A DNA stretch of 64,000 nucleotides, from positions 32,001 to 96,000 of the IMG/VR virus record IMGVR_UViG_3300047272_000250; one strand, written 5' to 3'. The notes beneath the pieces were generated by a model. It was not told the DNA's origin. It saw only the letters and a program-made list of their open reading frames with translations, and did not search any database. Positions 47,880 through 57,341 of the stretch are shown piece after piece. The position numbers were made by a program, and so were the translations under genes. Numbering within the stretch: the first letter of the stretch is position 1; each line of letters opens with the position of its first letter. The DNA is from a virus (Duplodnaviria > Caudoviricetes).

Positions 47880-48130
47880 GGGATATATCGCTATATGTTT
47901 GAAGAGCTTCAAGAAGCTCTTTGGCTATCCCGTCGAAATCAATAGTTCCGTTATTAAAGTATTTTCCAGATTGGATACACTTTTGTAGTGTATTTGCAAT
48001 GTATTTTTGTTTATCCATACATATCACCTCTAATACAGTATAACAAATAATCAGTATTAGTACAAATACTATATATGCCCTGTTTATTTATATATTATAG
48101 AAATGTTAATAAAATTTTAAATTTGACTAG

Positions 48131-48205
48131 TAGGGATACTTGGATTTGAACCAAGAGTAGATTGCATATAAGACAATTGCTTTAACCAGATTAAGCTATA
48201 TCCCC
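48131..48205 (-). tRNA. tRNA-Ile (anticodon UAU)
   Basis: Cloverleaf with GGGGATA/TATCCCT acceptor, TAGCTTAATCTGGTTAAAGC D-arm, ATTGT-CT[TAT]AT-GCAAT anticodon arm and CTTGG-TTCAAAT-CCAAG T-arm; CCA not encoded. Confidence 0.9.
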
Positions 48206-48632: not shown

Positions 48633-48770
48633 ATAGCGAGCACAGATGTGGGCTAAATCACATAGATAAATGTCCGAATTGTCCGTGTTGGTGCTTGAAT
48701 TTGTCAGTCCCCTGTGTTATAGTTCTACTATAAGAAATTAGCAAATAGCTAATAAAGAAAGGAATTCAAA

Positions 48771-49826: not shown

Positions 49827-50049
49827 TAAATAAAAAAATAAATAGTTGAAATTTCAACTAAAAGCGGGCCACCCCGCTGTCGGGCGTGTCTGTTAAGAAA
49901 CTTGTGGATAACCCCTGAAAAAATGTGATGTGATTCACATTTCAAAATGTCCGATTTGTGGCATTACTGGTCAGTAGATGTCAGACCCCCCTGCTATACT
50001 TCTAGGTATAGAAAGTTGAGAAAGGTTCTCAAACTAGAAAGGAATTCAA

Positions 50050-50732: not shown

Positions 50733-50931
50733 GGGCACCACGCATTCGGGCGTGTTGCAATTAAGACACGCCGATAAAACCCCATAAAATTTGTGAGATC
50801 GAACACAGTGTGATGTAGAACACATGTGACCTACACCACAAAGTCCCAAATGTCCGATTTATACCCCTCAAAATGTCAGACCCCTCTGCTAGAATACTAT
50901 GTATAAAGATTAAAAAAGAAAGGTGGTCAAA

Positions 50932-53093: not shown

Positions 53094-53251
53094 ATATGCA
53101 AAGCTCTGCATAAATATGCGGGGCACCCCGCAGTCGGGCGTGTCTCTATTAAGGACACTGTGATTTTTCTCACAAAATTTAGGGCGGATCTGATTTGGAA
53201 ATGTCAGTCTAATTTGATAGTATTAATATACCCGTTAAGAAAGGTCAACTC

Positions 53252-54257: not shown

Positions 54258-54407
54258 ATGACAACAACTCCAAAAATCGGGGAAACCTTCACAACTGCTA
54301 AGTCTGGTGTATCAGGCAAGGTTGAGGAAGTAGTCAAGAACGCAAATGGCTCTTTGCGTGTTCGCCTCAATGTTGAGGGAACAGAACGCTGGACAACAAT
54401 CAAGTAA
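54258..54407 (+). CDS. 49-aa early protein (paralog of 54968..55150)
   Basis: GAAAGGA RBS; GETFTTAKSGVSG...RW. Confidence 0.75.
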   Translation: MTTTPKIGETFTTAKSGVSGKVEEVVKNANGSLRVRLNVEGTERWTTIK

Positions 54408-54488
54408 GAAGGTTGGGGCTACTGGTAAATGTCAGTAGCCCCTGCTACACTTAAATATAACAACCCAAATAGAAAAGGAATAAATGCT

Positions 54489-54890
54489 ATGGCAAGAGCA
54501 ATCTCAGTAAAGGTGGCAACACCAAAGGTAATCAAGGCTTTGGAAGCAAAGTTGGCAGATAGCAAGAGCGCAATCACCAACAATGAAAAGAAGCGTAAGG
54601 AATACGAGAAAACAGAAAAGGCTTGGGCTAAGGAAGTTGCAGACCTAGTATTCAAGCACATCTCAAAGGCAGAAGTTTCTGCACATGAGAACTATCGTAA
54701 TGAACTCAATGTAAATCTCACACTTCCAGCAGGAACAATCAAGTTGCCTGAGAAGCCTTCTATCGAACTTGAAAATGAACTTGGTCGCTATGAAGTTCAG
54801 GAAATCGAGAACGCAATTCGTATTCTCAAAATGACAGATGAGGACACAGTTAATGCCTCAACTTTCAAGTCAATCGCACAATATCTATAA
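54489..54890 (+). CDS. Early coiled-coil protein
   Basis: True start is MARAISVK at 54489 (AAAGGA RBS); the track start lies inside the promoter. Confidence 0.78.
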   Translation: MARAISVKVATPKVIKALEAKLADSKSAITNNEKKRKEYEKTEKAWAKEVADLVFKHISKAEVSAHENYRNELNVNLTLPAGTIKLPEKPSIELENELGRYEVQEIENAIRILKMTDEDTVNASTFKSIAQYL

Positions 54891-54905
54891 TTCCCAATAG
54901 GGAAC

Positions 54906-54934
54906 TCAACCTGAGCAAGTTGGAAAACTGCTCA
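54906..54934 (+). ncRNA. H-type RNA pseudoknot (intergenic)
   Basis: S1 UCAAC/GUUGG, S2 UGAGCA/UGCUCA, L3 AAAAC. Confidence 0.55.
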
Positions 54935-54967
54935 ACCAACCCACATAAAGAAAAGGAAAATAAATAA

Positions 54968-55150
54968 ATGGCACCAATTACAAATACAACAACAGGTCGT
55001 TTCTATAAGAAGGGCGACACTTTCACAACAGGTAAGTCAGGAATTACTGGCGCAATCACAGAAATTATTTCTGTCCGTCCTAATCTAACTAAGTTAGGTT
55101 TGCAAACAGAAAATGGTTTGCGTTGGGCTATGGTAAAAATCGGCGCATAA
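54968..55150 (+). CDS. 60-aa early protein
   Basis: GDTFTTGKSGITG...RW. Confidence 0.75.
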   Translation: MAPITNTTTGRFYKKGDTFTTGKSGITGAITEIISVRPNLTKLGLQTENGLRWAMVKIGA

Positions 55151-55153
55151 CTT

Positions 55154-55242
55154 TCATCGGGGGATGAATAACTACACGCAACACTAAGTGTAGTTGGGAG
55201 TCTAGGTTACCTTTCTTTCCTAGGCTCCCGCAAACCCGATGA
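55154..55242 (+). ncRNA. Three-way-junction RNA with anti-SD loop
   Basis: Outer stem UCAUCGGG/CCCGAUGA; 8-bp and 11-bp hairpins; loop UUACCUUUCUUU. Confidence 0.6.
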
Positions 55243-55398
55243 TCGTAGCTTATCCACAAAGTTATCCACAGGCGCCCTGGGTCGCAAATTCGGACATTTA
55301 CGACATTAAGGAAAAATGCCTGAGATTGCCAGAATAATTAGACAGATGTCACCCCAGTCTGCTAGACTTAATATATCAACCTAACGAAAGAAGGAATC

Positions 55399-56412
55399 AT
55401 GGCTCACAACCTAGAAGAACAAAATGGTCAAGTTGCTTTTGCATTACGTGGAAAGCCTGCTTGGCACAATCTCGCTAACAAAATTTTCGGCGACGAAGAA
55501 ATTGTTACAACACAGTCAATGCTTTCAGAAGCAAAACTTTCTAATTGGAATGTCCGCTTAGAAGCAATGGCAGACCACACGCCTGAATCTTATCGTGATT
55601 CATCTGGCGCTCAATTAGTTCTTCGCACAAATCCATTTGACAATGGCACTGACGTGCTTTCTGTTGTCGGTTCTCGATACAAGGTAGTGCAGAATGAAGA
55701 ATTGTTTGCGTTTGCAGATAACATTCTTGACGGCGACGAATCTTGCAAGTGGGAATCTGCGGGTTCTCTAAAGAAGGGCAAAGTTGTATTCGGCTCTCTT
55801 ACAGTTCCCCGCACAATGGTTCTTGACCCACAAGGTGCTAACGATGAGACAAAACTCTATCTAATCGTTTGGACATCACACGATGGTTCTGTTGCTGTTC
55901 AGGCTGCGATTACACCTGTTCGTGTAGTTTGCCAAAACACCCTTAACCTTGCAATGCGTAATGCAAAGCAATCTTTCAAGATTCGCCACACACAGACAGC
56001 AGAAGGCAAAATTGTTGCTGCTCGTGAGGCTCTTGGTTTGACTTTCGCTTATGCTGATGAGTTTGAGAAGGAAATGCAAGCCCTTTTCAATGCGAAGATT
56101 ACTGACAAGAAGTTTTCGCAAATCATCAACACACTTTACCCAAAGCCTGAGAAGGATTCTAAGGGTTCTCTAAAGAAGTGGGAGAACAAGGTTGTTCTCA
56201 TTGACGAGTTGTATCACAACTCACCAACTAACGCTAACATCAAGGGCACAGCGTGGGGTGCGCTTAACGCTATGACTGAGCGCCTTGATTACTATCGCAC
56301 AGCCCGCACAGGTAATGGCGAATCTCTTATGTCTTCTGCTTCTGGTTTTGACCCAGTAATTACAGCAGAAAAAAATAAGTTAGCAAAACAAATCTTGGCT
56401 CTGGCTAAGTAA
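55399..56412 (+). CDS. DUF932 / TIGR03299 family phage-plasmid protein
   Basis: PAWH.L, VG.RY.VVQN, ESAGSL..G, SHDGS, TPVRVVCQNTL, IRHT and GTAWGALNA motifs. Confidence 0.9.
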   Translation: MAHNLEEQNGQVAFALRGKPAWHNLANKIFGDEEIVTTQSMLSEAKLSNWNVRLEAMADHTPESYRDSSGAQLVLRTNPFDNGTDVLSVVGSRYKVVQNEELFAFADNILDGDESCKWESAGSLKKGKVVFGSLTVPRTMVLDPQGANDETKLYLIVWTSHDGSVAVQAAITPVRVVCQNTLNLAMRNAKQSFKIRHTQTAEGKIVAAREALGLTFAYADEFEKEMQALFNAKITDKKFSQIINTLYPKPEKDSKGSLKKWENKVVLIDELYHNSPTNANIKGTAWGALNAMTERLDYYRTARTGNGESLMSSASGFDPVITAEKNKLAKQILALAK

Positions 56413-57107: not shown

Positions 57108-57341
57108 TTGACTAAATCATCTCATTTCATAGAATATATGAAGTTACATGAGATTAGTCTATTACAAGATGCTGAAAAGCTTCAAGACCTTATGAGTAAT
57201 TATGAATATAACTACGATTCAGATGAATATAGAGAGTTAGAGATTGCTGATTATCATAATACTGGAGAACTAATTGCAACCCGCCACCTTTTGTCAGTGG
57301 CAACTGATATAATGAATTCCTCTAACGAAAGGTATGAATAA
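57108..57341 (+). CDS. Early hypothetical protein
   Basis: GGAGG RBS with TTG start; embedded promoter at the 3' end. Confidence 0.65.
   Translation: MTKSSHFIEYMKLHEISLLQDAEKLQDLMSNYEYNYDSDEYRELEIADYHNTGELIATRHLLSVATDIMNSSNERYE

Follow-up and report, generated by a model that had tools for sequence, protein, structure and literature searches.

A structured element in a predicted 3'-untranslated region of freshwater actinophages presents a conserved loop complementary to early-gene leaders

The 3' end of a short early transcript of an uncultured, freshwater, actinobacterial phage contains a structured element that, on comparative evidence, probably tunes early protein synthesis. Its long hairpin holds a pyrimidine loop that is the complement of AAAGAAAGG, the leader motif after early promoters, and that late GGAGG sites do not match. 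Complementarity to early and not to late leaders is observed in two divergent genomes, on a stem that covaries around a loop that is conserved. The best explanation, which we advance tentatively, is that the element would exert feedback on early genes through this anti-leader loop.

The window, the 64,000-nucleotide stretch of DNA that was analysed, comprises bases 32001-96000 of a 104,393-bp IMG/VR record that has direct terminal repeats and a G+C content of about 40%. The virus is considered an actinophage because it encodes a WhiB protein (PF02467; 56575-56790, with a -10 element 6 nt before the start that makes the gene a candidate for leaderless translation) and a DUF932 protein whose nearest cultured relatives are those of Streptomyces phages (55% identity). 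A search for the host with the phage WhiB as query against bacterial genomes gave no match, and neither did nucleotide searches of a collection of cultured phages, run in near mode with 2.1 kb and in distant mode with 300 nt of the sequence.

A motif scan located 15 sites of the promoter class TGTC[AG][GC]-N10-TANNNT, all on the plus strand between 48702 and 60464, each followed by a leader of 25-35 nt with a GAAAGG-type ribosome site. The plus strand carries every gene in the element's part of the genome; a tRNA-Ile gene (anticodon TAT, minus strand, about 48130-48205) stands at the boundary of the late and early regions. The first-pass annotation had placed the element at the 3' end of an early operon, and the order of promoter, two ORFs, element and next promoter agrees with this:

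54430-54451, plus strand: early promoter of the two-gene unit that ends in the element (one of the 15 motif-scan sites)
54489-54890, plus strand: first gene of the unit, about 133 aa (ORF list, start reset downstream of the promoter)
54968-55150, plus strand: 60-aa ORF directly upstream of the element (ORF list, homologue searches)
55154-55242, plus strand: the whole element, a three-way junction (sequence reading, RNAfold)
55154-55161 with 55235-55242, plus strand: outer stem of 8 perfect pairs
55162-55169 and 55230-55234, plus strand: junction strands, unpaired, giving lengths of 8, 0 and 5 nt at the junction
55170-55195, plus strand: hairpin 1 (55170-55177 with 55188-55195), 8 perfect pairs and a 10-nt loop, lineage-specific
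55196-55229, plus strand: hairpin 2 (55196-55206 with 55219-55229), 11 pairs including one G-U (T55201-G55224), the conserved core
55207-55218, plus strand: 12-nt loop of hairpin 2, UUACCUUUCUUU, unpaired in both MFE and centroid structures
55250-55258 and 55262-55270, plus strand: two perfect DnaA boxes, context outside the RNA fold
55347: next early-class promoter, 3' of the element (motif scan)
55399, plus strand: start of the DUF932 gene (PF06067, profile match)

The element begins 4 nt past the stop codon of the 60-aa ORF. The product of the first gene (54489-54890) has no Pfam match, and in a related locus (L130) a homologue of this gene precedes the element. Between the early genes, at 54910-54937, lies a conserved inverted repeat (TGAGCA, about 12 nt, TGCTCA) that is repeated in three relatives (L095, L101, L110) and may be an operator-like site or a small RNA motif. 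On the other side of the element, the DnaA box pair before the DUF932 promoter is kept in most relatives, often in convergent or tandem arrangement; further perfect boxes in the window occur at 49903 and 51995 (minus strand).

The three helices described in the first-pass annotation are all present, and the three-way junction is both the MFE and the centroid structure computed by RNAfold, at -42.1 kcal/mol compared with a mean of -22.5 +/- 3.5 kcal/mol for shuffles of the element (z -5.6; 0 of 200 equally stable). The junction is kept when folded within a 491-nt context, and the fold of the minus strand is weaker (-35.6 kcal/mol, z -4.2). Rfam release 15 matched the window solely at the tRNA (48131-48205) and not at the element; a permissive Rfam scan of 54850-55450 returned SNORD46 as its best match (15.4 bits against a threshold of 40) and no ribozyme family; the homologous loci in relatives matched no Rfam family; and ARAGORN together with a tRNA covariance model found no tRNA, tmRNA or tRNA-like fold at 55154-55242. 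A hammerhead or other small three-way-junction ribozyme was rejected, the junction strands of 8, 0 and 5 nt being without the core motifs CUGANGA, GAAA and UH. Also rejected were a coding explanation, since the overlapping ORFs differ in strand and frame between the window and L130, and a small minus-strand ORF behind the SD-like loop, which has no consistent start codon.

No early-class or sigma-70-like promoter that could serve the element itself was found in 54452-55154, a terminator scan of 54300-55500 returned no intrinsic terminator, and the 3' flank of the fold is not U-rich. With no U-tract after it and no promoter just before it, the element is, judged from sequence, part of a 3'-UTR and not a gene in its own right; neither boundary expected of the discrete trans-acting sRNA of about 90 nt that had been envisaged was found. 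As far as sequence can tell, the element is the 3'-UTR part of the transcript of the 60-aa ORF, within the unit that extends from promoter 54430 to promoter 55347.

Protein-anchored searches recovered about 200 loci from related freshwater virus contigs; carriers of the long hairpin (hairpin 2) amount to six contigs of two lineages, with four distinct versions. Its homologues in L154/L155, L156 and L157/L255 (L255 being a metagenome contig) represent a second, distant clade of freshwater actinophages, in which the hairpin has the same neighbours as in the window, a homologue of the 60-aa ORF on one side and the DUF932 gene on the other. Across the four versions the stem is paired in 40 of 40 cells, with compensatory double changes in 6 of the 10 stem pairs and a covariation score of 0.917, compared with 0.327 in shuffles (0 of 500 reach the observed value); the covariation is lost when the pairing register is shifted. 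The G-U pairs of these versions are compatible with the plus strand only, and together with the covariation of the stem they support the plus strand as the strand of the structured RNA. Within the loop and its two closing G-C pairs, 1 of 16 positions varies (U to C in the loop of L156), two of the four versions having been ascertained through an exact-loop search and L156 having been reached through its protein instead; the comparison supports base-by-base selection on the loop. In a quick tree of DUF932 proteins the two carrier clades fall on opposite sides of the deepest split. The element is therefore either old and often lost or has moved between lineages, and its loop has been held constant while the stems turned over.

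The full junction recurs only in one near-identical contig (92% identical over the region), from which the window differs at 2 of the 89 positions of the element, both of them unpaired, and at 30 of 155 positions of the downstream spacer (Fisher 5e-5). An exact scan for the 5' junction strand found this contig only. The covariance model of the whole junction (R1) detected the element nowhere else in the genome, nor in any of 60 neighbouring loci from relatives, so the full junction is lineage-specific. In the second clade the hairpin again belongs to a branched fold, but the outer stem and the weak, small 5' hairpin of that fold share no sequence with the window, and hairpin 1 has no sequence counterpart there. 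The covariance check on homologues that had been proposed thus upholds hairpin 2, with its covarying stem and conserved loop, as the only part of the junction found beyond the window's lineage; conservation does not extend to the outer stem or to hairpin 1.

Scans for the 16-mer loop gave 37 and 26 matches in viral contigs, mostly by chance, and at least 120 in metagenomes; on testing for the stem, only the syntenic ones among the matches listed proved real. Three candidates (L424, L433, L410) were rejected as homologues, their matches sitting in coding sequence. When the covariance model of hairpin 2 was run on the six carrier records, each yielded a single copy, whereas a further 43 related records yielded none. 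The hairpin is absent from about 160 relatives that use the same early leaders; it is therefore dispensable. In most relatives this place is occupied by a plain, stable, GC-rich hairpin whose loop varies, with DnaA boxes after it. One such hairpin at the equivalent site in a non-carrier (L066, 2781-2817) has a 15-nt loop with two CUUUCU repeats and may be an independent anti-leader loop.

The exact complement of the conserved loop is AAAGAAAGGUAA, and sites such as those at 50915 and 53237 have the early leader type AAAGAAAGGU. The candidate targets are as follows:

50915-50924, plus strand: best candidate target, RBS of a 51-aa early gene (start 50932), 10/10 complement, -13.0 kcal/mol
53237-53245, plus strand: candidate target, RBS of a GP88-family gene (PF17338; start 53252), 9/9 complement, -10.7 kcal/mol
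48754-48762, plus strand: candidate target, RBS of the first early gene (start 48771), 9-nt complement, -10.2 kcal/mol
55387-55394, plus strand: RBS of the DUF932 gene, a possible cis target on read-through, 8 pairs including one G-U, -7.2 kcal/mol

The sites of the genes starting at 57341 and 60138 are also among the best matches to the loop. The complementarity to early ribosome-binding sites for which the first two of these sites had been cited is thus exact, and it is far commoner in early than in late genes: as counted on a crude gene set, a perfect complement of at least 7 nt occurs at 11 of 30 early (plus-strand) and 4 of 131 late (minus-strand) RBSs (Fisher 1.4e-6), whereas GGAG or GAGG occurs at 8 of 30 early and 78 of 131 late RBSs. 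The phage therefore has two distinct classes of ribosome site, GAAAGG-type early leaders and the GGAGG sites of late minus-strand genes. In a carrier genome of the other clade (G001), 13 of 16 early leaders hold a complement of at least 7 nt and 9 of 16 one of at least 9 nt, compared with 42 and 12, respectively, of 136 leaders in ten relatives without the hairpin. Relative to these non-carriers, matching leaders are significantly over-represented in G001 and not in the window's own genome, and the comparison covers two lineages only. An A/G-rich complement of 7-10 nt is a generic SD-like sequence. Like a trans-acting anti-SD sRNA, the element has a conserved, unpaired seed that is complementary to several RBSs.

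The likeness of the loop to the 3' tail of actinobacterial 16S rRNA, noted at first reading, applies to the terminal 7 nt (CCUUUCU), which the loop shares, and not to the CCUCC core, which it is without. The tail sequence was found in many Actinomycetota genomes and is consistent with a published report (PMC12274833). Pairing of the early motif with this tail involves the terminal 7 nt; the motif then continues by two A's that the 16S 3' end cannot pair, and the loop covers both, with two more A-U pairs. Sharing the 7 nt and adding two A-U pairs, without CCUCC, the loop is thus a mirror of the early leaders and not of strong SD sequences generally. The proposal that the RNA occludes strong SD sequences and shuts off the host finds no support, because GGAGG-type sites, which the late genes use, match the loop poorly. 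The accompanying statement that leaderless mRNAs are numerous in this phage was too strong, there being two candidates (starts 56575 and 60492) among the 15 early promoters.

These observations suggest a model in which the plus-strand fold, situated in the 3' untranslated end of the short early transcript that begins at promoter 54430 and encodes the 133-aa and 60-aa proteins, would expose its 12-nt loop on the long hairpin; the loop would pair with the purine leader AAAGAAAGG(U), which bears the SD sequence of promoter-proximal early genes; and it would in this way compete for early leaders with the very 3' terminus of 16S rRNA. Translation of the early class would then fall as early transcripts accumulate, amounting to a delayed negative feedback that would spare late genes with GGAGG-type sites and the few leaderless ones. 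We infer accordingly that the RNA accumulates, pairs in the cell and is repressive. The element could act in trans, either after processing or as part of the mRNA, or in cis when read-through extends a transcript to the DUF932 gene. Pairing of the loop with SD sequences of its own transcript is predicted at -6.4 kcal/mol in the window and at -8.0 to -9.6 kcal/mol in the second clade, no better than with other early leaders. No position-conserved or outstanding cis target was found among these sites, so the element may work in trans, on read-through RNA in cis, or in both ways.

A hairpin with these properties might instead be recognised by a protein, in a role such as operator, antitermination site or processing site, with the SH3/KOW-like product of the upstream ORF as one possible reader; in that case the match to early leaders would be fortuitous, or due to a preference of the protein for the same motif. 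We regard this as unlikely. Hairpins bound by proteins, such as boxB or a coat-protein operator, classically combine a stem that covaries freely with a loop conserved base by base, and hairpin 2 has both features; the 60-aa ORF always lies directly upstream, its product is predicted to be a small SH3/KOW-like beta-barrel (AF2 pLDDT 78.5), and other structured elements follow this ORF in other clades. However, the Foldseek matches behind the predicted fold are weak (E 0.06-0.3), the protein occurs both with and without the hairpin, being equally present in about 160 hairpin-less phages, and a loop of 12 nt is large for a simple protein operator. Furthermore, an incidental complement of 9-10 nt to the early-leader consensus would be improbable in two genomes.

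The 60-aa protein has no sequence match in Pfam, PHROG or the PDB, and homologues of 55-60 aa are conserved in L084-L116, L130 and L159-L185. In nearly every clade a structured element, differing from clade to clade, follows the stop codon of this ORF. Directly after it in L154 (about 860-915) and L164 (about 790-850), a stem encloses a segment able to pair with a downstream heptamer, a possible pseudoknot in which both pairings covary between the two loci and which has no Rfam match. L159, L160, L161, L162 and L185 (about 860-920) have an outer stem, an inner hairpin and conserved unpaired purine-rich stretches, with stems that covary between L159 and L162. In many relatives, among them L084, L088 and L089 (about 1690-1730), the ORF is closely followed by a perfect hairpin with a -35-like TAGACA in its 5' arm; an extended -10 comes immediately after, and the whole resembles a fusion of terminator and promoter.

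The GC-rich hairpins at this position in nearly all relatives, including the plain ones in two loci that have the gene order of the window (L387, L390), would also be expected if hairpin 2 were an ordinary 3'-end structure (a terminator, an insulator or an exonuclease block before the DUF932 promoter region) in which the sequence of the loop is irrelevant; its position at the end of a transcription unit fits such a role. We consider this improbable. There is no U-tract and the terminator scan found no site, and whereas the loops of the relatives' hairpins vary freely, that of the carriers is fixed while 6 of 10 stem pairs have been replaced; structural need alone is therefore insufficient.

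It is very unlikely that the loop acts as a mimic of the 16S rRNA tail, that is, as a core-less RNA decoy for a host factor that recognises the tail, such as a tail-binding maturation factor or a MazF-type nuclease of abortive infection that removes the anti-SD by cutting before it. The loop does read as the tail ACC-UCC-UUUCU minus UCC, the tail sequence being present in many Actinomycetota genomes, and the L156 variant reads CACCU, the reported cleavage motif of MazF-mt11, which cuts mycobacterial 16S rRNA 11 nt from the 3' end (PMC12274833). Three of the four versions, however, read UACCU and not CACCU, the CCUCC core is absent, and the neighbourhood bears no sign of defence or counter-defence. 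If such a decoy did exist, it would be a phage counter-defence by rRNA mimicry.

An equally slight probability attaches to a function at the level of DNA, with the hairpin extruded in single-stranded DNA or serving as a protein site tied to the DnaA boxes and replication. The first box of the perfect pair begins 8 nt 3' of the fold, and the 104-kb genome has six perfect boxes against an expectation of about one; but in the second clade the hairpin is not accompanied by adjacent DnaA boxes and relatives keep the boxes without the hairpin, covariation through G-U intermediates suits RNA better than DNA, and a double-stranded protein site needs no compensatory changes. Least credible is a functional minus strand, which also folds and whose loop would be a strong SD-like purine tract exposed to trap 30S subunits, since one or two G-U pairs per version become A-C mismatches on that strand, all 15 early promoters face the opposite way, and no consistent start codon follows the loop in the homologues.

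If the loop does pair with early leaders, the early genes of this group of phages would be marked by a ribosome-site tag that differs from the one on the late genes, and there would be a rare handle on the timing of gene expression in uncultured phages of the abundant freshwater actinobacteria. Because the loop and the leader are short, compensatory mutants are easy to design, and the model can be tested with simple reporters.

Among known systems, the 6C (B11) sRNA (RF01066) needs neither Hfq nor ProQ for its pyrimidine-rich hairpin loops to pair with purine-rich sites in mRNAs, ribosome-binding regions among them (PMC6486639). The phage element resembles it in its actinobacterial setting and in the use of a loop as seed, the pairing being a proposal in the case of the phage; but 6C is encoded on the chromosome as a stand-alone sRNA and has several C-rich loops, whereas the phage element lies in a 3'-UTR and has one CU-rich loop with 4 C in 12 nt. 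The 6C model (two hairpins, loops of at least 6 C) gave no match to the element at E values up to 10, and there is no sign of common descent. In the 3'-UTR of the icaR mRNA of Staphylococcus aureus, a pyrimidine anti-SD motif pairs with the SD region and blocks initiation, with no separate sRNA gene (PMC3868564). The phage element, as placed by sequence signals, is likewise inside an mRNA 3'-UTR; however, icaR acts on its own mRNA, whereas the phage loop matches the SD sequences of its own transcript moderately and those of other early genes best. The element belongs to neither 6C nor icaR by sequence or by model.

The C-rich-loop sRNAs of Firmicutes (RNAIII and RsaE/RoxS) combine conserved unpaired pyrimidine loops with variable stems and have many SD targets. 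They are host regulators with promoters and terminators of their own, and their UCCC-type seeds are directed against GGGA or GGAG; unlike theirs, the phage loop appears to be aimed at the leader tag of the early genes of one phage group. Tags of this kind have a precedent in the start-associated sequences of Cluster K mycobacteriophages, a conserved RBS tag on a subset of actinophage genes. We know of no complementary RNA partner for the Cluster K tags, in contrast to the early-leader tag described here, which has a candidate one. In phage T4, the early proteins RegA (a repressor) and RegB (a nuclease) turn down the translation of early genes at their RBSs. The logic proposed here is the same, with a protein as the effector in T4 and, in our proposal, an RNA loop in its place; if this is correct, some members of this phage group carry an RNA that reads the early tag, an RNA counterpart of the protein-based early shut-off of T4.
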